This document shows, piece by piece, positions 2,027 through 38,744 of a stretch of DNA of 43,895 bases (its first letter is position 1; every line of letters begins with the position of its first letter). Location of the stretch: the IMG/VR virus record IMGVR_UViG_2548876954_000009. The stretch is one strand, 5' to 3'. The DNA is from a virus (lineage: Duplodnaviria > Heunggongvirae > Uroviricota > Caudoviricetes). A model generated the notes under the pieces. The model saw nothing but the letters and a program-made list of their open reading frames with translations, made no database searches and had not been told where the DNA came from. A program made the position numbers and the translations under genes.

Positions 2027-4831
2027 TTATAACCCGGATAACTTCGCTTCAAGCTCCTCAACCCTTTTTGTCAGTTTCTGAATATGGTGAATGAGAGGAA
2101 CAACCAGACGATCATACATCACGCCTTCAGCAACCATCCCGTTCAGGGAAATATCTTCCGGGTCGTCGTCATCTACAGCCTCACGCCAGTGAACATATTG
2201 CGGTGCAATCTCTCCAACTTCTTCCGCAATAAGGCCATAATGCCCCCAGTCCTTTCTGTCCCTTTCACAAGTCGAGCGATACCATACAGGACGCAGTTTC
2301 AACAGTTCGTCCGCGTACCTGTTCTCTAAAGACTCGATATCCGTCTTGTATCGACGTGATGAAGTCGAACGAAATACCATGTTGTAACCAGCAATCGGAC
2401 TTACGAACATGTTAGGACTATCGGTTGTTGTCTGAACATCAAAGATCTGCAGACTGTAACAGCTTAACGTCTGGAATCCTGCATCCAAAGAACCAGACTC
2501 AAGTTTCGTTGACGTAACAAAGTTACGGGTCATCTGGTTTACTTCGGATATGCTGTAAGCGCCGATTTCAAGCGGTGTGGGCAGTTTCTTTGTGTTCAGT
2601 GCACGACGCCATCCGGGGGAATAAGCAGTACCGTTAAACACATAGATAAATTCCGCATTAGTGAGGGCGTCAGAGACACTTGTCGTCGTGGCTGTTGTTA
2701 TTCGAATGGTGTAATGCGTTGCACTGTGACTGAATACTTCTATCACAGCTCCTGCCAGTGGAATAATGCCGCACCCAGTTTCACTGTCTGGTATGGAGGC
2801 GCTGTCAGCGTATGCCCAGGCACAGCGTGCCACCCATGCTTTTGTATTAAATGCACCATTATTCTGCAATATCGTCACTAACTGAGCCGTCGTTATCGAT
2901 GCACCATTACTCCCTGTGCCTAACCAGCCGGTTGGAGATGCAGGGCAACCAATATTCGCCGGTGACAGCGAAATATTAGCCGTTCCGTCAAATGAGACCC
3001 CATTAATGGTGCATGCTGTTTGCAGTTTTGTGGCTGTAGCTGCATTACCATTCAATGAACCAGTTAACCCGCCTGTAACAGACAACGGACCTGAAACTGT
3101 TCCTCCGGTTGTTGGCAGTGCTCCAATATCTGACGGCGTCGGTTTCTGATGTGAACTATACATCGTATAAACAACACCATCGGTAACGCTGGAAGGCTTA
3201 CTCGCTGAATATGTTGGCGAGGTATAAACAGAAACTGACGCATTTGCGGTACAATCCCAATGGATATTTACACTCGTCGCATAATTGCCAGTCTCAACGT
3301 AAATATCATATGTATCGCCGGATGTGTTGTTCCAGGCGAAATTAGTTAATCCGACGGCTGTACGCTTCCACAAAGCCCCGGTAATCCCTTTGGGGTTTCC
3401 ATTGCCTGCTCGTAGAACCAGTTCTGAAATGCCTGCCTGCTGTGGGGAGCCGACGTTGTAACCAGCACCACCAATCAATGCGATGTAAACGATGGAACTC
3501 GCTTGTGGCATTGTAACCGTAGCCAGTTTGAACCATCCTGCCCCGCCAGAGAAAGACATCGTTACTGAATTTAAAGTACCAATATCTTTCGGCGTTAATG
3601 TGATATCCGCAGTCAGTGCTTTCCCGTTAACTTTTCGGTCAGATGGCACCCTGCTGTTCGCATTGTCATTTGCTGCTTTAACTGCCTTTGGCGTTGCGGC
3701 CAGCGATTCACTGGTGCTGTCGACAGCACTGCTAAGTTTCACAACACCTTTAGTGGTAAGGCTTGCGTCCTCCATCGCAACCGCACCGGCAATCTCTTCA
3801 GCACGATTGGCTGCAGCTTGTGCACGCGTTGCAGCGGATTCAGCAGCAGTTTTGCTCTGAGATGCAGCCGTCGCACTACCAGCTGCCTCTGTTGCCTTCG
3901 TGGATGCCGTCGTGGCACTGCCCTTCGCAGCTGACGCCTGCCTGATCGCCTCATCTTTTGAAGCGGACGCCGAGGTAGCTGATGCAGACGCAGAACTTGC
4001 AGATTCAGCAGCTGCCGACTTAGAGGAAGCGGCATTGTCTTCTGAAGTCTTTGCATTTGTTTCAGAGGTTTTTGCTGCCGATGCTGAATCTTTCGCGGCT
4101 GTAGCCTGACTCGTCGCCTCAGTCGCTTTTGCGGTAGCTGTTGTTGCCGATGACGACGCGCTTTCTGCTGATTTTCCGGCGGCGGTGGCACTGGCTGCGG
4201 CATTCGTTTCTGACATTTTTGCCGCACCGGCACTGGTGGCCGCCGCGCTTTTTGAGGACTCTGCAGCGGCAGCACTTTTTGATGCTTCAGTGGCCTTTGC
4301 TGATGCCGTTCCTGCGCTGGAAGACGCTGACTGAGCAGATGATGCAGCCTGTCCGGCTGACGTGCTGGCGGCACGTGCTGAGCCTGCAGCATCGGTTGCA
4401 TGAGTTGCCGCCTCGCTGGCTGATGCACTGGCATCGCTGGCTGATTTTTTCGCGGCTGCCGTATTCTGTGCAACCGCGGAGGCGTTACGCGCCACCTCTT
4501 CCACCATCAGTTCAAAACGGCGCAGTGCCTCCGGACGGGCATCATCCTCCGTCATTGCGCCGAGAAAATCATTCAGCGTACCCGGCTGAGAATCTTCATA
4601 CACGGTGATGGTCCCGGCATGTGACGGCGGGAATCCCTCCACCAACAGGATGACGCTGTACTGACCGTACTCAACGTCCATTGTGTAACGCCCGGCTTCA
4701 TCCGGGTTTTCTGAAGCCACCGTGTTCACCACCACCGTGGTGCTGTTGCGCCTGGCTTTCAGCTGAATGGTGCAGTTCTGTATTGGTTTTCCCGCACCAT
4801 CTTTCAGTACACCTGAAATCTTTACTGCCAT
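2027..4831 (-). CDS. stf: Side tail fibre protein (lambda Stf-like N-terminus, Ala/Ser/Thr-rich repeat stalk, C-terminal intramolecular chaperone/S74-like domain)
   Basis: N-terminus MAVKISGVLKDG... resembles lambda Stf; long A/S/T-rich repeats; C-terminal ...YKTDIESL...GLIAEEVGEIAPQYVHW... resembles auto-cleaving chaperone domains; ATG at 4831 with GGGGTGAG RBS (ORF track start at 4837 is GTG). Confidence 0.85.
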   Translation of the reverse strand: MAVKISGVLKDGAGKPIQNCTIQLKARRNSTTVVVNTVASENPDEAGRYTMDVEYGQYSVILLVEGFPPSHAGTITVYEDSQPGTLNDFLGAMTEDDARPEALRRFELMVEEVARNASAVAQNTAAAKKSASDASASASEAATHATDAAGSARAASTSAGQAASSAQSASSSAGTASAKATEASKSAAAAESSKSAAATSAGAAKMSETNAAASATAAGKSAESASSSATTATAKATEATSQATAAKDSASAAKTSETNAKTSEDNAASSKSAAAESASSASASATSASASKDEAIRQASAAKGSATTASTKATEAAGSATAASQSKTAAESAATRAQAAANRAEEIAGAVAMEDASLTTKGVVKLSSAVDSTSESLAATPKAVKAANDNANSRVPSDRKVNGKALTADITLTPKDIGTLNSVTMSFSGGAGWFKLATVTMPQASSIVYIALIGGAGYNVGSPQQAGISELVLRAGNGNPKGITGALWKRTAVGLTNFAWNNTSGDTYDIYVETGNYATSVNIHWDCTANASVSVYTSPTYSASKPSSVTDGVVYTMYSSHQKPTPSDIGALPTTGGTVSGPLSVTGGLTGSLNGNAATATKLQTACTINGVSFDGTANISLSPANIGCPASPTGWLGTGSNGASITTAQLVTILQNNGAFNTKAWVARCAWAYADSASIPDSETGCGIIPLAGAVIEVFSHSATHYTIRITTATTTSVSDALTNAEFIYVFNGTAYSPGWRRALNTKKLPTPLEIGAYSISEVNQMTRNFVTSTKLESGSLDAGFQTLSCYSLQIFDVQTTTDSPNMFVSPIAGYNMVFRSTSSRRYKTDIESLENRYADELLKLRPVWYRSTCERDRKDWGHYGLIAEEVGEIAPQYVHWREAVDDDDPEDISLNGMVAEGVMYDRLVVPLIHHIQKLTKRVEELEAKLSGL

Positions 4832-26834: not shown

Positions 26835-27115
26835 GATATTGTGGTGCTTTTTGTGGGAGTCATCCACTTACGCACTTTGTTTTTCTATACCAGCAGTTAG
26901 CTTCTGCTGTAAAACTATTCATGCAGCAAACCTGCACTTCACCACGATGGTTAGCATACTTTTCCTGATTAAGATCTTGCCAAATATGCTTGCCATTATT
27001 TCATGCATTGAACATCCTTACTTTTTATTAAAGATATCCAATATTCGCCACTCTGTCTGTATCTCCACTCAGGCATCAGCCTTCTTCGTTATCGTATACA
27101 GACGAGCTATGAATT

Positions 27116-27331
27116 TTAATCAGTAATAATGACATTTGCTGCTGCAGGACCTTTAGCACCACTCTCTATAGAGAAGATAACCTTTTGACCTTCAAATAAG
27201 GTTCGATAATTATCATTCTGAATTGCAGAAAAATGCACAAACACATCTTTACTACCATCAACAGGAGAAATAAAGCCAAAACCTTTATCAGCGTTAAACC
27301 ATTTTACTAAACCAGTCATTTTATTTGACAT
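27116..27331 (-). CDS. cspB: Cold shock protein, CspB/CspI-like
   Basis: [23 protein letters not shown]... with RNP motifs; 71 aa. Confidence 0.9.
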
Positions 27332-27631
27332 TCTACATTCCTTAACTTGAGCCTTTCGGCATAAATGATTTGTATAACAGAAACGACTTCGTACTTAATT
27401 GGAGAGACTCAAAGAAGGAATAAGTGAATAACACCTGAAATGAGAACTGCTTTAGTAAACTACTTCGTATATCGTCTGTTCTTCAAACCGACGCAATCAT
27501 TAACGCATAGTTGAACATATGAAGCAATGTTTATTTTAGACATCCAGCCATCTTCAACCCCATCAAAAAACTATAGCTTTCTTCAGGAAGGTGTGTATAG
27601 TGCGCCCAGTTATCAGTATTAAGGAATTTTT

Positions 27632-33685: not shown

Positions 33686-33918
33686 GCTGCACCTCCGAGA
33701 TGCTTCATGTTTTTTCCGGAGCAAAAGGCTATAAGCGGCATACTGATGCGGTAATTACGGCCCAGCGGTTCACAAATCACCTTCTGACATTCACGGTCAA
33801 CCAGGCTAACACGTAGAACATGCCCTGCAGGCGTGGTGTACCACTGCCCAACTGTAGGAATTGATGTTTTTTTACGCTTAAGCAAACGGCAAATATTGAG
33901 GATCAACGGATTAAGCAT
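33682..33918 (-). CDS. Small basic hypothetical protein, translationally coupled to replication gene
   Basis: 78 aa; GGAGGG RBS; stop overlaps downstream ATG (ATGA). Confidence 0.4.
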   Translation of the reverse strand: MLNPLILNICRLLKRKKTSIPTVGQWYTTPAGHVLRVSLVDRECQKVICEPLGRNYRISMPLIAFCSGKNMKHLGGAA

Positions 33919-34747
33919 GACGATGCCCTCCGCGGATATTCAGGAGACGGTGAATATGAAAATTAGCCTTATCCGCCAGACGAATACGTTCAGCTTGCAA
34001 GTTAAGAAGGGTTTCTACCAGAACCTGATGCGCCTGCGGATCCGAAAGAGTTACCTTGCGCAGAGCACGTAGTGCAGTCGTTACATAACTGAGTTTATGT
34101 AAGTCTTCATCATTCAGACGAGTGAGGGCTGGGACAGTAGCCATGATGGCAGCCTCCTTGATCGGTGAAATACTTCCACCACCGGAAACGCCAATTTCGC
34201 TGGTGGTGAACTGAACGGGGTTGGCGTAACCGGTGATCAAGGAAACCGGCGCATCTTTCGATGCCCCCGCCCAGCCCACCATAACTTTGATGTGAGCAAA
34301 TGCGGACGATAAAAAAGACGCTGGCGCGTCATATATCGCCTTGATCAATTCCAGGACGCCAATCCCGGCACCCGCTTTATAAGGTGCCTGAACAGTGTAA
34401 CGTCCCGGAATGGCAGAATCAATGTGCTGGTGGTCCTTCACACTCAACAAAATCACGCCTGAATTTCCACAAAGGACTAAAGCACTCATGCGGGTAGTCT
34501 TTGCGAAGATAGATAACGCGCTGTGTTTCTGGCTCCCAACGAATAACATGAACATAAAGTCCTCTTCCGTCACGAAACCAGCGGTTAAGTTCCTGCACAA
34601 CTCGCCCCCCACAGTCAGGTAAAGTTCTCTGTGGTTACTTACAGCCAGGTGATTTGGTAATCTGCATTCATGCCGTAACAACAGGTGTTCAGCGACGCTG
34701 ACCACCAGCTGTTGCGACAAACGGTTATTTGCCGTTAAACTGTTCAT
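33911..34747 (-). CDS. Hypothetical protein (278 aa) in early-right operon
   Basis: ATG overlaps upstream stop (ATGA); no recognisable motif, no Walker A. Confidence 0.4.
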   Translation of the reverse strand: MNSLTANNRLSQQLVVSVAEHLLLRHECRLPNHLAVSNHRELYLTVGGELCRNLTAGFVTEEDFMFMLFVGSQKHSALSIFAKTTRMSALVLCGNSGVILLSVKDHQHIDSAIPGRYTVQAPYKAGAGIGVLELIKAIYDAPASFLSSAFAHIKVMVGWAGASKDAPVSLITGYANPVQFTTSEIGVSGGGSISPIKEAAIMATVPALTRLNDEDLHKLSYVTTALRALRKVTLSDPQAHQVLVETLLNLQAERIRLADKANFHIHRLLNIRGGHRHA

Positions 34748-35307
34748 GCGTTAGTTTCTCCACAGACACAAAACGCCACGACGCCCGGAGCTGCACACTC
34801 GCGGGCGTCACTCTTTTCTGGAGCGCAAAAGATTTTGTAGACCAGTGCTGCATGCTCCTGGAGCTTCGAAATTGACAGATACAACTCATCATTAATTGCT
34901 GTCTGCTCGTGTGGCTCCACGACCCCATCTTCGATTGCCGAACGAATCTGCTTTGAGTAACTCCCGATCTGTTCGATGACTTCCAGCAGGCGCTGGTTTA
35001 TATCGGCATTCTCTACTTCCTCAATTTCAGGAAGCGATACAAACACCCCACCAGCAGACTGTGCGACAGCATCCGCAATGTAGTGAGTGCCAGCCGCGCG
35101 CTGTAAAATCATTGCCCATCCCAGCGGGAAAATCTGATCGCCATCTGCACGAAGGCGGTTGAATAAAGCGTTCTCTGTTACATCCAGCCACTCAGCAGCT
35201 TCAGCGTAACCCCCCGGCAACGCCGCGATAGTTTTCCTGACAGCTTTCACGTACCACTCAGGCTGTTTTTCTATTTTCCAGTGATGCTTACCCACGATTA
35301 GCCTCAT
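34744..35307 (-). CDS. Putative CII/YdaT-like regulatory protein
   Basis: 187 aa immediately downstream of cro-like gene, the position of cII/ydaT. Confidence 0.35.
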   Translation of the reverse strand: MRLIVGKHHWKIEKQPEWYVKAVRKTIAALPGGYAEAAEWLDVTENALFNRLRADGDQIFPLGWAMILQRAAGTHYIADAVAQSAGGVFVSLPEIEEVENADINQRLLEVIEQIGSYSKQIRSAIEDGVVEPHEQTAINDELYLSISKLQEHAALVYKIFCAPEKSDARECAAPGVVAFCVCGETNA

Positions 35308-35338
35308 CGTTCTGTGGTTAAAAATTGAAAGTGTTCTG

Positions 35339-35539
35339 CTAATCTTTCGGATAGATATCCGGTCTTAAGTCAGATTTCGTAATTGCACCTGACGTGCATT
35401 GCTCAAGTTTTTTAGCCAGCACAAAACTGGCTTTTTTATAGCCATTGAAAACCAGCCGTAAGTAGCCAGGTGTTGAGCCAACTTTTCCGGCCAACTCGCC
35501 CTGCTGTTCTTTGGTTAAAGAGTCCCAATACGCTTTCAT
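35339..35539 (-). CDS. cro: Cro/YdaS-like HTH regulator
   Basis: 66 aa from ATG 35539 with GGAGG RBS; ...GSTPGYLRLVFNGYKKASFVLAKKLEQCTSGAITKSDLRPDIYP HTH; divergent from cI. Confidence 0.75.
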   Translation of the reverse strand: MKAYWDSLTKEQQGELAGKVGSTPGYLRLVFNGYKKASFVLAKKLEQCTSGAITKSDLRPDIYPKD

Positions 35540-35544
35540 ACAAC

Positions 35545-35623
35545 ATGTACCTCCGGTATACATATTACATGATTGAAATGAACCTTCAAGATACTTGTAC
35601 CTTAACGGTACAAGGGTTTTAAT
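35545..35623. promoter_or_regulatory. OR region: two palindromic operators plus candidate PR (minus) and PRM (plus)
   Basis: Operators ATGTACCtccGGTATACAT (35545..35563) and CTTGTACCttaacGGTACAAG (35594..35614); PR -35 TTGAAG/-10 TAATAT on minus; PRM -35 TTGTAC/-10 TTTAAT with near-leaderless cI start. Confidence 0.5.
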
Positions 35624-35629
35624 TTCGTT

Positions 35630-36304
35630 ATGAAAACAATCCATGACATCCGGCGGTCTAACGCCAGAAAACTGAGAGATGGTGTTGGCGGGAATTCTTC
35701 CTTTGCCACTATGATTGATCGCGAGCCAACCCAGACCAGCAGGTTTATGGGAGATGGTGCTACTAAAAATATCGGTGACAGCATGGCACGACACATCGAA
35801 AAATGTTTCGACCTGCCTGTCGGATGGCTCGATCAAGAACACCAGACAACGAACATCACAAAAAAACCTGATGTTTCAATCACTAATAAACAAATCACAT
35901 TAGTCCCTGTCATATCATGGGTACAGGCCGGAGCATGGAAAGAAGTTGGATATTCTGAGGTTGATTTGAGCACAGCAGAAACGTATCCCTGCCCTGTACC
36001 CTGTGGGGAAATGACTTATATCTTGCGGGTGATAGGTGATTCAATGATTGATGAGTACCGCCCGGGAGACATGATTTTTGTCGATCCTGAAGTACCTGCC
36101 TGCCACGGTGACGACGTTATTGCATTGATGCACGATACAGGTGAAACCACCTTCAAAAGGTTGATAGAAGATGGGACACAGCGTTATCTCAAAGCGTTAA
36201 ACCCAAACTGGCCTGAGCCTTACATTAAGATCAACGGTAATTGCTCTATAATTGGAACTGTGATTTTCTCAGGAAAACCAAGAAGATACAAAATCAAAGC
36301 CTAA
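35630..36304 (+). CDS. cI: CI-type repressor (N-terminal HTH, C-terminal S24 LexA-like peptidase)
   Basis: 224 aa; C-terminal ...VIGDSMIDEYRPGDMIFVDPE... S24 signature with catalytic Ser and downstream Lys (FKRL); divergent from cro. Confidence 0.9.
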   Translation: MKTIHDIRRSNARKLRDGVGGNSSFATMIDREPTQTSRFMGDGATKNIGDSMARHIEKCFDLPVGWLDQEHQTTNITKKPDVSITNKQITLVPVISWVQAGAWKEVGYSEVDLSTAETYPCPVPCGEMTYILRVIGDSMIDEYRPGDMIFVDPEVPACHGDDVIALMHDTGETTFKRLIEDGTQRYLKALNPNWPEPYIKINGNCSIIGTVIFSGKPRRYKIKA

Positions 36305-36316
36305 TCAATGTTTATG

Positions 36317-36340
36317 AACCTGCTTCGGCAGGTTTTTTTA
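36317..36340 (+). terminator. Rho-independent terminator after cI
   Basis: Stem AACCTGC/GCAGGTT, loop TTCG, followed by T7. Confidence 0.7.
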
Positions 36341-36343
36341 TAC

Positions 36344-36380
36344 TTGACAATGTACCCATGAGATACATAATGTACCCAAG
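36344..36380 (+). promoter_or_regulatory. Putative PL promoter with OL operators
   Basis: TTGACA (36344..36349), 16-nt spacer, CATAAT; overlapped by ATGTACCCATGAGATACAT and a second ATGTACCCA copy sharing the OR half-site. Confidence 0.5.
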
Positions 36381-36456
36381 AGAAACAACAAACAGGCAGG
36401 ACGCCCACGAAGTAGCCGCCAGGGGCATATGAAGTCCTGGATGATTCGTTAGTAAC

Positions 36457-36480
36457 AAAAAAAGCGTCGTACAGGACGCT
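36457..36480 (-). terminator. Terminator after the exported-protein moron
   Basis: Stem AGCGTC/GACGCT, loop GTACAG, T-tract on minus strand. Confidence 0.5.
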
Positions 36481-36504
36481 TCGCTCTTTAACAATCTGGA
36501 TGAC

Positions 36505-37020
36505 TTATCGGTCAGATTTAAACTGGGGTTCTGGCAAAACTGGTGGTGTTGAATCTTCAAATCGTAACCAGTGTTCCCAAATATCATGTGTTCGTAATTT
36601 CTGTAGACTAATTTGACGCGATGCAATTGCGGAATTAGTGGTTACTCCACCAGAAGCATCGCTCTCTACTGACGTTGAGGCTTTTTCTACTAATTCTGAC
36701 CAAGCTTCACTTTCTGCGTCAAAAGCTTCTGTTAAGTCCCGCAGACGCTGTGGCTCATTTTTATGGTCTTCCTTCAAACGATTCAAAGCGGCAGTTGAAT
36801 ACTTATTCCTGACCCATTCGATCTGAGTTAGCTGAATCCGCAGACAATTATCTATATCAATGGTTGTGTTCTGAGGCATGTCAGAACAAGAAATATAAAA
36901 GGTCACAACTCCACCGTTCAAACTACTGCCCGGTTCGATTAAAACATTAGAGGAATTTGACGTAGTCGGCAATATTAATGCTAACGACAAAACCACATGT
37001 TTAACAGAAATCGCACCCAT
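36505..37020 (-). CDS. Hypothetical exported protein (N-terminal signal peptide); moron antisense to PL
   Basis: MGAISVKHVVLSLALILPTT... signal-like N-terminus; own terminator; convergent with cI. Confidence 0.5.
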   Translation of the reverse strand: MGAISVKHVVLSLALILPTTSNSSNVLIEPGSSLNGGVVTFYISCSDMPQNTTIDIDNCLRIQLTQIEWVRNKYSTAALNRLKEDHKNEPQRLRDLTEAFDAESEAWSELVEKASTSVESDASGGVTTNSAIASRQISLQKLRTHDIWEHWLRFEDSTPPVLPEPQFKSDR

Positions 37021-37354
37021 TTAAATTGCCCTCTAAAGAACAAGGTCATCCAGATTAACCGAAACCTGGTTATTGGGGAATAACCAAATCCACCTCGCCT
37101 GATGTGGCTAAAAGCAGGCACATAACAGCTAAGTATTTTCAACCAGAGAGAATCCTTAGCGTTGTGGTGAATGCGCAGGCTGATGCGCGAAAGACATTGC
37201 AGCTATTGCGGAAAAGAGCTGTTCGGCGGAGCAATTAAATGCCCGTGAGAGTCTGAAATAACCGCAAGCCGGAGATCAGCATCGGTCACCACAACAGCCA
37301 CTGCTTTGGCGGTACCAGTTTGTACACTTGCTTCCGGCTGGTACCGCTCTTTTT

Positions 37355-37443
37355 ACAAAACAGAGAAGAACATCATCGGACGACGGGCTCATAACCCAAT
37401 CCATCCGGGCGGCGGCCACCACAGGTGTTCTTCTCTGTTTTGT
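37355..37443. repeat. Perfect 18-bp inverted repeat separated by 53 bp
   Basis: ACAAAACAGAGAAGAACA (37355..37372) and TGTTCTTCTCTGTTTTGT (37426..37443). Confidence 0.7.
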
Positions 37444-37491
37444 GGAGAAACTAATAGGCCTTGCAGGGTCGATATGATGAGGAGCAGCAAA

Positions 37492-37854
37492 ATGGCTAGC
37501 GAACGCAGTACTGATGTACAGGCATTTATCGGGGAGCTGGACGGCGGCGTATTTGAAACCAAAATCGGCGCAGTTCTCAGTGAAGTCGCTTCCGGTGTGA
37601 TGAACACGAAAACCAAAGGTAAGGTCTCGCTCAACCTGGAAATTGAACCATTTGATGAGAACCGTGTGAAAATCAAACACAAACTCTCATATGTTCGCCC
37701 AACTAACCGCGGGAAAATTTCCGAAGAAGACACTACCGAAACGCCGATGTATGTCAATCGCGGTGGTCGCCTGACTATTCTGCAGGAAGACCAGGGACAA
37801 TTACTGACTCTTGCCGGTGAACCTGACGGAAAACTCCGCGCAGCAGGTCGTTAA
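37492..37854 (+). CDS. YfdP-like protein (CPS-53-type early gene)
   Basis: 120 aa from ATG 37492 with GAGGAG RBS; first gene of yfdP/Q/R/S-like block. Confidence 0.5.
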   Translation: MASERSTDVQAFIGELDGGVFETKIGAVLSEVASGVMNTKTKGKVSLNLEIEPFDENRVKIKHKLSYVRPTNRGKISEEDTTETPMYVNRGGRLTILQEDQGQLLTLAGEPDGKLRAAGR

Positions 37855-37919
37855 TATCGTTCTTAATAAACTGATTATTTATCTCATCACTGAATATCTT
37901 TGTATAGTGAGGACTTATT

Positions 37920-38744
37920 ATGTCTCAGAACTTAGACGCAACCGCAATTAATCAAATCCATGCCCTTATTTCTGCTCAGGGTGTTAATGAAATTATCAGT
38001 AAGATTGGTGCCGACGCAGTGGCATTACCTGAAAATTTCCGCATTCATGATCTGGAAAAATTTAATTTAAATCGCTTCCGTTTCCGTGGTGCGCTTTCCA
38101 CTGCCAGCATCGATGACTTTACCCGTTATTCTAAAGATCTTGCAGATGAAGGCACCCGCTGCTTTATCGATGCCGATAATATGCGAGCCGTCAGTGTGCT
38201 TAACCTAGGCACTATTGATGAACCTGGTCATGCAGATAACACCGCCACTCTCAAACTGAAAAAGACAGCACCGTTCTCTGCTCTGTTGTCTGTTAATGGC
38301 GAGCGTAACTCCCAGAAGTCACTGGCAGAATGGATTGAAGACTGGGCCGACTACCTTGTAGGCTTTGATGCTAATGGTGACGCTATTCAGGCAACAAAAG
38401 CGGCTGCGGCTGTCCGTAAAATCACGATTGAAGCAAACCAGACCGCTGATTTTGAAGATAATGACTTCAGCGGAAAACGCTCCCTGATGGAGTCTGTCGA
38501 AGCGAAGACCAAAGATATTATGCCAGTGGCATTTGAATTTAAATGCGTTCCGTTTGAAGGTCTGAAAGAACGTCCGTTTAAATTACGCCTCAGCATTATC
38601 ACTGGCGATCGTCCTGTACTGGTTCTGCGCATTATTCAGTTGGAAGCAGTCCAGGAAGAAATGGCTAACGAATTTCGTGATCTGCTTGTTGAGAAATTCA
38701 AAGACAGCAAAGTAGAAACCTTTATTGGTACTTTCACCGCCTGA
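37920..38744 (+). CDS. YfdQ-like protein (DUF2303)
   Basis: 274 aa, [20 protein letters not shown]...; same length as recalled YfdQ. Confidence 0.65.

Follow-up and report, generated by a model that had tools for sequence, protein, structure and literature searches.

A probable lambda-type switch in the e14/SfV immunity region of a tailed phage, with predicted operators at OR and OL and a structured RNA in the PL leader

Results

The repressor locus of the virus record IMGVR_UViG_2548876954_000009 (Caudoviricetes; the 43,895 nucleotides analyzed are called the window) is the already described immunity region of e14 and SfV and not a new immunity type. It very probably works as the lambda-type lysis/lysogeny switch of this immunity group. 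Its features were located in the window (Table 1) and compared with those of related loci.

Gene layout and relatives

cI and the cro-like gene diverge from a short control region, an arrangement characteristic of lambda-type switches. An earlier note, made from the sequence alone, had described an S24 repressor gene and a YdaS/Cro-like gene divergent over 90 bp. The coordinates hold and the Peptidase_S24 domain is present, with the qualification that the YdaS_toxin match of the cro-like ORF is weak, as is its HTH_3 match, both lying below the curated Pfam cut-offs. RefSeq names the equivalent of this gene ymfT, and CroE has been listed as the regulator of the croE operon (PMC8249747).

Table 1. 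Positions of switch features and neighboring elements in the window
Feature	Position	Strand	Sequence or type	Basis or remark
C4 antisense RNA	34199-34286	-	RF01695	82.3 bits; gathering score 45
isrK-like RNA	34311-34387	-	RF01394	64.2 bits; gathering score 50
CII-like regulator, second gene of PR operon	34744-35307	-	Phage_CP76, YmfL type	ORF and Pfam
cro-like lytic repressor gene	35339-35539	-	YmfT/CroE type, 66 aa	ORF
cro/cI intergenic control region	35540-35629			exactly 90 bp
Predicted OR1-like operator	35546-35562		TGTACCTCCGGTATACA	directly after PR -10; about -6 to +11 of PR
Candidate PR	-35 35590-35585; -10 35568-35563	-	TTGAAG, 16-bp spacer, TAATAT	read from sequence
Predicted OR2-like middle operator	35579-35595		TGAACCTTCAAGATACT	overlaps PR -35; centre -43 from cI start
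PRM	35595-35630 (-35 35595-35600; -10 35618-35623)	+	TTGTAC, 17-bp spacer, TTTAAT	
Predicted OR3-like operator	35596-35612		TGTACCTTAACGGTACA	perfect dyad, 0 mismatches; -34 to -18 of PRM, including -35 TTGTAC
cI repressor gene	35630-36304	+	224 aa	
Intrinsic terminator of cI	36316-36335	+	hairpin	terminator scan; conserved in relatives
PL	36344-36371	+	TTGACA-N16-CATAAT	11/12 matches; predicted start near 36378
Predicted OL1 operator	36351-36367		TGTACCCATGAGATACA	PL spacer, about -27 to -11; half-sites conserved, N5 variable
Predicted OL2 operator, weaker	36371-36387		TGTACCCAAGAGAAACA	2 mismatches; about -7 to +10 of PL
Structured PL leader RNA	36388-36449	+	about 62 nt	starts about 10 nt after predicted PL start
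Hairpin, then exact boxA	36461-36482; 36483-36494	+	boxA GCTCTTTAACAA	

CI is 100% identical over 224 aa to YmfK (CohE) of E. coli K-12, the e14 repressor, and the cI of SfIV also shows 100% identity. YmfK is listed as an SOS-sensitive repressor (PMC8249747). Peptidase_S24 covers residues 93-212 (Pfam, E = 1.5e-26), and alignment with lambda CI places Ala100-Gly101, Ser138 and Lys176 where S24 self-cleavage needs them; the C-terminal fold matches lambda CI, LexA and UmuD. The recognition helix comprises residues 33-40, PTQTSRFM, of an N-terminal helix-turn-helix domain, with TQTSR falling in helix 3 of that domain in an AlphaFold model. This domain gave no Pfam match at E values up to 0.01. 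There is a weak resemblance to Rep of Salmonella phage SPC32H (5d50), a protein for which a literature search found no operator information relevant here.

The window shares both repressor and operators with e14, whose K-12 operators were read directly. Like the window, e14 has OR1, OR2, OL1, OL2 and PL as well as the leader RNA, the stretch from OR3 to the cI ATG is identical, cI is leaderless and the prophage repressor is SOS-sensitive. K-12 departs from the window at two bases within or beside OR1 (window GGTATACA, K-12 GGTGTACA) and in the OL1 spacer. Downstream of PL, K-12 carries ymfJ, whereas the window has an opposite-strand ORF followed by yfdP/yfdQ. In the case of the Shigella flexneri phage SfV (U82619; cI, cro, orf36 and orf37), gene order is the same, DNA identity is 98.7% over window positions 34700-36453, and the 'putative operator region' of its GenBank entry corresponds exactly to 35545-35613. 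The homology ends at 36453, and SfV has orf33 where the window has the hairpin, the boxA and the opposite-strand ORF.

OR, PR and PRM

The earlier note had seen two palindromes in the control region. Both are there, ATGTACCTCCGGTATACAT at 35545-35563 and CTTGTACC-TTAAC-GGTACAAG, a perfect 8-5-8 dyad, at 35594-35614; its total of two sites did not stand, as the middle site had been overlooked. OR is tripartite, with predicted sites beginning at 35546, 35579 and 35596 whose positions are conserved in relatives. Several dyad operators lying over PR and PRM are expected of a lambda-type switch, and the overlaps with the promoters are predicted from sequence.

Within the OR1 spacer, the - strand reads GGAGG, the Shine-Dalgarno sequence of cro, and in each of the 31 relatives OR1 precedes the cI ATG by 84-88 nt. 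The candidate PR has only 8 of 12 consensus matches and so was absent from the consensus promoter scan. Its pattern TTGnnG-16-(T/C)A(A/T)(T/A)AT is kept among relatives, as is the divergent ...TTTCAT start of the cro-like gene. Start-site data from a K-12 lysogen list no transcription start at either PR or PL, which in the case of PR is expected of a repressed promoter. OR2 fits poorly in the window (3 mismatches, 9/12 matches). Of the 31 relatives, 23 have a site with no more than 3 mismatches at this position, 51-53 nt ahead of the ATG, mostly as TGAACCnnCAAGGTACT with 2 mismatches; in the remaining 8 the aligned sequence is more degenerate. Part of this conservation could come from the PR -35 inside the site.

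The half-sites of OR3 are invariant across relatives and its N5 spacer varies freely. Transcription from PRM starts on the A of the cI ATG, as placed from the identical K-12 ymfK, for which dRNA-seq gave a leader of 0 nt (PMC4681348 Table S3). In relatives, cI lacks a Shine-Dalgarno sequence and a TnTAAT is conserved 6 nt ahead of its ATG. The suggestion that the cI mRNA is nearly leaderless is thereby borne out. OR3, the best dyad, covers the PRM -35. Since K-12 lysogens nevertheless show clear PRM activity, either occupancy of OR3 is partial or OR3 is mainly the site of Cro.

PL, OL and the leader RNA

Behind the cI terminator, which is annotated in SfV and in phage Ayreon, lies the best promoter match within 34600-38000; Ayreon carries a promoter annotation here as well. 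The earlier note had ATGTACC recurring twice over this promoter, and copies were indeed found at 36350 and 36370. Its proposal of an OL/PL at this place is further strengthened by conservation: the order terminator, TTGACA, A, TGTACC-N5-GrTACA, TAAT is kept behind cI in relatives of 57-100% identity. OL2 has the same geometry at PL as OR1 at PR; its left half is conserved and its right half is degenerate and lost in several relatives. Homology with phage cdtI stops at 36387, the exact end of OL2. Lambda-type switches are further marked by such an early-left promoter behind cI with operators of its own.

The RNA that follows consists of a closing helix, P1 (36388-36392 with 36445-36449), and two hairpins, P2 (36395-36397 with 36403-36405) and P3 (36417-36423 with 36436-36443). 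The single-sequence fold is not significant (z = -1.06), so support for the structure comes from covariation only (0.42, compared to 0.108 in shuffles). The RNA was found on at least 120 viral contigs, as 67 distinct sequences (97.2% paired), and an exact boxA often comes after it. Phages with other types of repressor carry it too, likewise behind the repressor gene, and its carriers e14, SfV, SfII, ST64B, ZF40, SPN3UB, mEp237 and YeP2 have different repressors and no N gene. No relevant Rfam family was found at the gathering threshold or at E values up to 10, and the covariance model found no second, putR-like copy behind PR in the window.

The putL RNAs of HK022 and HK639 were considered as homologues of the leader and rejected. 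Like it, they lie immediately downstream of PL in lambdoid phages without N, are of similar size (about 60-70 nt), and are multi-helix and strongly conserved. However, putL is built of two adjacent stem-loops and put needs no boxA, the putL sequences differ from the leader when read directly, and the covariance model had no match in either phage, in HK639 even with filters off. The AgvB and EcOnc anti-sRNAs, located in the late region behind PR', were rejected as counterparts, as were the Pas sRNAs, which lie among late and structural genes (Q, holin/lysozyme, capsid, tail). We suggest, tentatively and with the odds rather against it, that the leader represents a class of processive antitermination RNA not described before, acting in cis or through Nus factors. 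If so, it would let PL transcription pass the terminators of the early-left operon.

It is improbable that the promoter behind cI is not the early-left PL and drives only a short non-coding RNA ending at the hairpin 36461-36482. A conserved, structured RNA that begins so close to the predicted start, a hairpin with a U-containing tract some 85-115 nt downstream, and a next ORF on the opposite strand would all suit such a transcript. However, same-strand early genes directly follow the leader in K-12, SfV, SfII, ZF40, ST64B and others. Read on the + strand, the hairpin has a poor U-tract, UUCGCUCUUU; it makes a far better terminator when read on the - strand, and the boxA behind it suggests read-through. 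The lack of a PL start in the K-12 lysogen data further argues against a constitutive small RNA.

Conservation of the predicted operators and the CI recognition helix

Conservation of the operators was assessed in 31 loci/genomes (167.7 kb) whose CI homologues share 43-100% identity. With at most 1 mismatch to TGTACC-N5-GGTACA allowed, the two regulatory regions hold 87 sites compared to 4 elsewhere, and 30 distinct upstream sequences keep the GTACC...TACA half-sites in the same columns while the 5-bp spacers vary. The sites follow the recognition helix of CI: all 31 loci with REPTQxSR have them (2-3 sites each), compared to 0 of 49 loci with a different helix. This footprint upholds the assignment of OR/PR/PRM and OL/PL in the earlier note. 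In the searchable literature, no binding, footprint or reporter data for these operators and no matches to the operator sequences were found.

The binding of CI to the dyads is inferred, and it might be that CI recognizes something else, leaving the dyads wholly or chiefly to the Cro-like protein or to a different regulator of phage or host. Cro is likewise a helix-turn-helix protein, and the perfect dyad covers the PRM -35, where lambda Cro binds first. We consider this quite unlikely. The presence of the sites tracks the CI helix across 80 loci, the same dyads stand at PL, beside cI and about 0.8 kb from cro, and no other conserved dyad is visible in the control region. In lambdoid switches CI and Cro share operators, which would make Cro binding a refinement of CI recognition rather than an alternative to it.

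The same conservation pattern bears on the notion that the palindromes act in RNA, as hairpins or terminators. The terminator scan lists 35594-35614 as terminator-like, a stem followed by GGTTTTAATT. Among relatives, however, the arms are invariant and never show compensating changes, and the loop is variable, which is the signature of a protein recognizing DNA rather than of pairing in RNA. The T-run corresponds to the PRM -10, and the stem is outside the cI mRNA since that transcript starts downstream. A role in RNA is therefore very unlikely.

Clustering of the motif by chance or through composition, such as GTAC-rich sequence, has already been refuted: although bare ATGTACC is not enriched in the window (6 copies, 3.8 expected; 18 of 100 shuffles reach 6), a window-wide motif search, which the earlier note had proposed as a check, found the dyad TGTAY-N7-RTACA 3 times (0.08 expected; 0 of 100 shuffles), each time inside the switch region (35546, 35596 and 36351), where its position is kept across genera and follows the CI recognition helix.

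Discussion

The arrangement suggests how the switch probably works. A CI dimer would bind 17-bp dyads of consensus TGTACC-N5-GGTACA through its PTQTSRFM helix, the three OR sites lying within 67 bp shared with two back-to-back promoters. Binding at OR1, after the PR -10, and at OR2, over the PR -35, would turn off the cro/cII-like/replication operon, and binding at OR3 would let CI limit its own synthesis from PRM, which yields the leaderless mRNA. OL1 in the spacer and OL2 at the start site would block the near-consensus PL, predicted to read rightward into the early-left operon. Cro, of the YmfT type, presumably uses the same sites with the order of preference reversed. Upon DNA damage, RecA-stimulated self-cleavage of CI at Ala100-Gly101, with Ser138 and Lys176 as catalytic residues, would release both promoters. 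Cooperativity and an ordered filling of the sites by CI are inferred; OR2 and OR3 abut, with 17 bp (about 1.6 helical turns) between their centres, a distance poorly suited to cooperative contacts between adjacent dimers.

As in lambda, cI and cro diverge, OR is made up of three 17-bp dyads overlapping both promoters, PRM gives a cI mRNA without a leader, and PL follows cI in the same orientation, together with its own operators. The S24 C-terminal domain likewise has the Ala-Gly, Ser and Lys triad. The middle site is centred near -43 of PRM, and lambda OR2 near -42. In contrast, the N-terminal DNA-binding domain is unrelated in sequence to that of lambda CI and the operator consensus differs. 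Sites are spaced 33 and 17 bp apart instead of 24 and 23 bp, two OL sites are recognized instead of three, and OL lies about 0.8 kb from OR instead of 2.4 kb. Both rex and an N gene are lacking, and a different leader RNA takes the place of lambda nutL.

Covariance models further point to a second, RNA-based immunity module of the C4/isrK type at 34199-34387. The C4 RNA scores above the curated threshold for the antisense RNA of P1/P7 immunity, and both RNAs lie inside the ORF annotated in SfV as orf37, 'immunity region'. The ORF that they overlap belongs to the Ash family. A passage of PMC3475682 cites Roberts et al. (2007) for a second immunity locus in SfV.

A 2.6-kb query from cro to yfdP (35300-37900) matched, in part or as a whole, 3012 of 5426 complete E. 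coli genomes, and the immunity region is also found in serotype-converting Shigella phages, Stx2c phages and a cdt phage. Since the region is this common, a precise operator map, three OR and two OL sites of the form TGTACC-N5-GGTACA tied to the recognition helix REPTQxSR, can help to predict homo- and hetero-immunity of these prophages as well as their SOS inducibility. The switch introduces no new principle, being lambda-like with different spacing. The unannotated structured RNA in the PL leader is the more interesting lead.

Architecture of the immunity switch

The earlier note had placed cI and a cro-like gene on either side of an intergenic region with two palindromes, and a promoter (PL) overlapped by the same half-site behind cI. 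On re-reading of the window its coordinates were correct. The two genes diverge across exactly 90 bp, both palindromes lie between them, and ATGTACC occurs at 36350 and 36370, each copy overlapping PL, which is the top promoter match within 34600-38000. The observation is confirmed and its interpretation supported: conservation upholds the OR and PL sites and promoters, but a third OR site (OR2) had been missed.

Features of the switch, the PL leader and the neighbouring RNA locus
Feature	Position	Strand	Remarks
C4 antisense RNA	34199-34286	-	Rfam, 82 bits
isrK-like RNA	34311-34387	-	Rfam, 64 bits; tandem with C4
cro-like ORF, 66 aa	35339-35539	-	weak YdaS_toxin and HTH_3 matches, both under Pfam cut-offs
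Palindrome ATGTACCTCCGGTATACAT	35545-35563		cro-cI intergenic; predicted OR1, 35546-35562
Putative PR: TTGAAG, 16 bp, TAATAT	35590 to 35563	-	from reading of the sequence
Predicted OR2, TGAACCTTCAAGATACT	35579-35595		3 mismatches to TGTACC-N5-GGTACA
Perfect dyad CTTGTACC-TTAAC-GGTACAAG	35594-35614		cro-cI intergenic; predicted OR3, 35596-35612
PRM -10, TTTAAT	35618-35623		window version of TnTAAT
cI, 224 aa	35630-36304	+	Peptidase_S24 at residues 93-212
Terminator-like hairpin	36316-36335		after cI
PL, TTGACA-N16-CATAAT	36344-36371		after cI; 11/12 match; predicted OL1, 36351-36367
Predicted OL2, TGTACCCAAGAGAAACA	36371-36387		2 mismatches to TGTACC-N5-GGTACA
Structured leader RNA, ~62 nt	36388-36449	+	about 10 nt after predicted PL start
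Hairpin, then exact boxA GCTCTTTAACAA	36461-36494; boxA 36483-36494	+

The bare 7-mer ATGTACC is not enriched across the window (6 copies, 3.8 expected; 18/100 shuffles reach 6). A window-wide dyad search, proposed in the earlier note, gave enriched matches confined to the switch: TGTAY-N7-RTACA occurs three times against 0.08 expected (0/100 shuffles), all within the cro-cI-PL region. Two further sites, OR2 and OL2, were gained by allowing mismatches to TGTACC-N5-GGTACA. A match inside cI, TGTACCCTGTGGGGAAA (35995-36011, +), with a perfect left half-site and a poor right half (2 mismatches), is probably due to chance.

Operators and the recognition helix of CI

CI and YmfK of E. coli K-12 share 100% identity. 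The C-terminal domain of CI, aligned to lambda CI, retains both the cleavage site and the catalytic residues (Ala100-Gly101, Ser138 and Lys176 for lambda A111-G112, S149 and K192), and sequence and fold searches match lambda CI, LexA and UmuD. For the N-terminal domain, Pfam gave nothing at E up to 0.01, and its likeness to Rep of Salmonella phage SPC32H (5d50) is only weak. PMC8249747 lists YmfK as a repressor sensitive to SOS and assigns regulation of the croE operon to CroE.

Full-length homologues of CI form a graded series, from which 80 genomic loci were compared. In 31 of them (CI identity 43-100%), ranging from E. coli, Serratia, Proteus and Rosenbergiella to Halomonadaceae, the region upstream of cI holds three sites at fixed distances of about -84, -51 and -34 from the ATG. 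Half-sites TGTACC and GGTACA of the proximal site are essentially invariant around five variable central bases (TTAAC, TTTAA, AACAA, CAAGA, ACAGA and others). The distal-site spacer is held to CCTCC, the cro Shine-Dalgarno on the opposite strand, and the middle-site spacer contains CAAG, the TTG of a minus-strand -35. Reading the palindromes as RNA hairpins was rejected because their arms never change in a compensating manner in relatives.

Across the 31 loci (167.7 kb), the two regulatory regions contain 87 sites with at most one mismatch, and the remaining sequence contains 4. All 4 come from the four Halomonadaceae loci (L030-L033), distant relatives in which they lie about 1.6-2.2 kb beyond cI on its downstream side. 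These loci are without a PL/OL set directly behind the cI homologue, and each has one such downstream site, of the form TGTACC-N5-GGTAC(A/T). In L033 such a site at 4717 is followed by an exact boxA at 4770. The downstream sites are probably displaced OL/PL regions, with genes inserted between them and cI.

Two or three upstream sites were present in 31/31 loci whose CI carries the motif REPTQxSR, and in 0/49 loci where a more distant CI has a different, SYLSQVR-like helix. The AlphaFold model of CI (mean pLDDT 79) has a four-helix N-terminal domain in which PTQTSRFM forms helix 3 (residues 33-40), just after helix 2 (residues 22-28), and is the predicted recognition helix of a helix-turn-helix. 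Computationally, the case that CI reads TGTACC dyads is made most strongly by the agreement of helix and site over the loci. No published binding experiment for CI on these operators turned up in the literature searched.

Promoters and the leaderless cI mRNA

A PRM -10 of the form TnTAAT is conserved 6 nt before the cI ATG in nearly all relatives, and a Shine-Dalgarno is absent before cI in these upstream regions. TTGTAC lies 17 bp upstream of the -10, within the proximal operator. The earlier note had judged the cI mRNA to be nearly leaderless, and mapping in K-12 bears this out. Differential RNA-seq placed ymfK among only five leaderless mRNAs: transcription begins on the A of the ATG, giving a leader of 0 nt (PMC4681348, Fig. 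2E, Table S3). Since YmfK and the K-12 stretch from OR3 to the ATG are identical to their counterparts here, a leaderless start is experimentally established for the identical sequence.

The putative PR is kept in relatives as TTGnnG-16-(T/C)A(A/T)(T/A)AT; OR1 runs from the final base of its -10 to about +11, and OR2 overlies its -35. At PL, OL1 fills the spacer, and OL2, which begins at the final base of the -10, is placed just as OR1 is at PR. Behind cI, the succession of terminator, TTGACA, A, TGTACC-N5-GrTACA and TAAT is kept down to 57% identity. Homology to phage cdtI ends at 36387, the exact end of OL2, and therefore the operators travel with the immunity module. In the start-site list of a K-12 lysogen (PMC4681348), neither the PR nor the PL position has an entry, which fits repression.

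A lambda-like bistable switch is the best-supported model of the region. CI would repress PR at OR1 and OR2 and PL at OL1 and OL2, and would limit PRM at OR3. Cro would compete for the same operators, and induction would proceed through RecA-stimulated self-cleavage of CI. Lambda CI activates PRM from position -43; the centre of the predicted OR2 also falls at -43 relative to PRM, and the site may, by analogy, share that role. Five features set the switch apart from lambda. Its sites are spaced by 33 and 17 bp, symmetry is greatest at the site over PRM and not at one over PR, two OL sites were recognised instead of three, some 0.8 kb separates OL from OR, and the DNA-binding domain and operator consensus are unrelated to those of lambda.

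A second immunity locus

The C4 and isrK-like RNAs both lie inside a 278-aa Ash-family ORF (33911-34747), equivalent to SfV orf37 ('immunity region'), which also matches Pfam Phage_ASH over the same DNA. Either this DNA encodes an RNA as well as a protein, or the protein family is partly built on translated RNA genes. Evidently the locus is SfV's second immunity system, which is RNA-based and attributed to Roberts et al. 2007, as cited in PMC3475682. Elsewhere (27074-27492, -), the cspA thermoregulator 5'UTR (RF01766) is matched over its full length with 157 bits, which implies that the window holds a cold-shock gene of the cspA family.

The PL leader RNA

The leader RNA also stands behind unrelated repressor genes, in SfII, YeP2, ZF40, ST64B, mEp237 and SPN3UB, and its invariant 18-mer was found in at least 120 IMG/VR contigs. 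RNAalifold gave a closing helix and two hairpins. Covariation over 18 sequences was 0.42; shuffles gave 0.108 (0/500), and slid partners gave no more than 0.10. With 67 distinct sequences, in an alignment fitted to the model and so biased towards the structure, 97.2% of cells were paired, with a covariation of 0.50 against 0.14. Compensatory changes are numerous in helices P1 and P3; the unpaired stretches, CACGAAGUAG and the GAUGA region, are invariant. No Rfam family matched the leader.

The antiterminator RNA putL of HK022 and HK639 occupies the same position. Homology of the leader to put was ruled out, no leader copy being found in either phage. Just upstream of putL in the PL region of HK022 (L084, about 700-760, -) are GTAC-containing dyads, TGTACTATTGGTACT and AAGTACAT.

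The exact boxA occurs once in the window and in 22/212 fetched loci. In the leader-bearing loci checked, it lies on the leader's strand and follows the leader by about 24-35 nt in the 3' direction, which points to a possible antitermination role for the leader in these phages without N. The hairpin before boxA would be a good intrinsic terminator if read on the minus strand, and the pair suggests a nut-like, Nus-factor-dependent element.

Converging on PL, between the leader and yfdP/yfdQ, is a 171-aa ORF (36505-37020, -) with a signal-peptide-like start and an LprI match below threshold. Because it has no counterpart at that position in K-12 e14 or SfV, it seems to be an additional gene that was inserted, one that PL transcription would cross antisense.

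Relation to annotated loci

Positions 34700-36453 share 98.7% DNA identity with phage SfV, whose GenBank record annotates cI, cro, the terminator and a 'putative operator region' (35545-35613 here); the phage Ayreon record annotates the post-cI promoter. RefSeq names the cI and cro equivalents in E. coli genomes ymfK and ymfT, and part or all of a 2.6-kb cro-to-yfdP query matched in 3012 of 5426 complete E. coli genomes. Given these annotations and gene names, the locus was already known. The present analysis adds the third OR site, a consensus for the operators, their link to the recognition helix, and the promoter geometry. The residual interest of the locus lies in the PL leader RNA.
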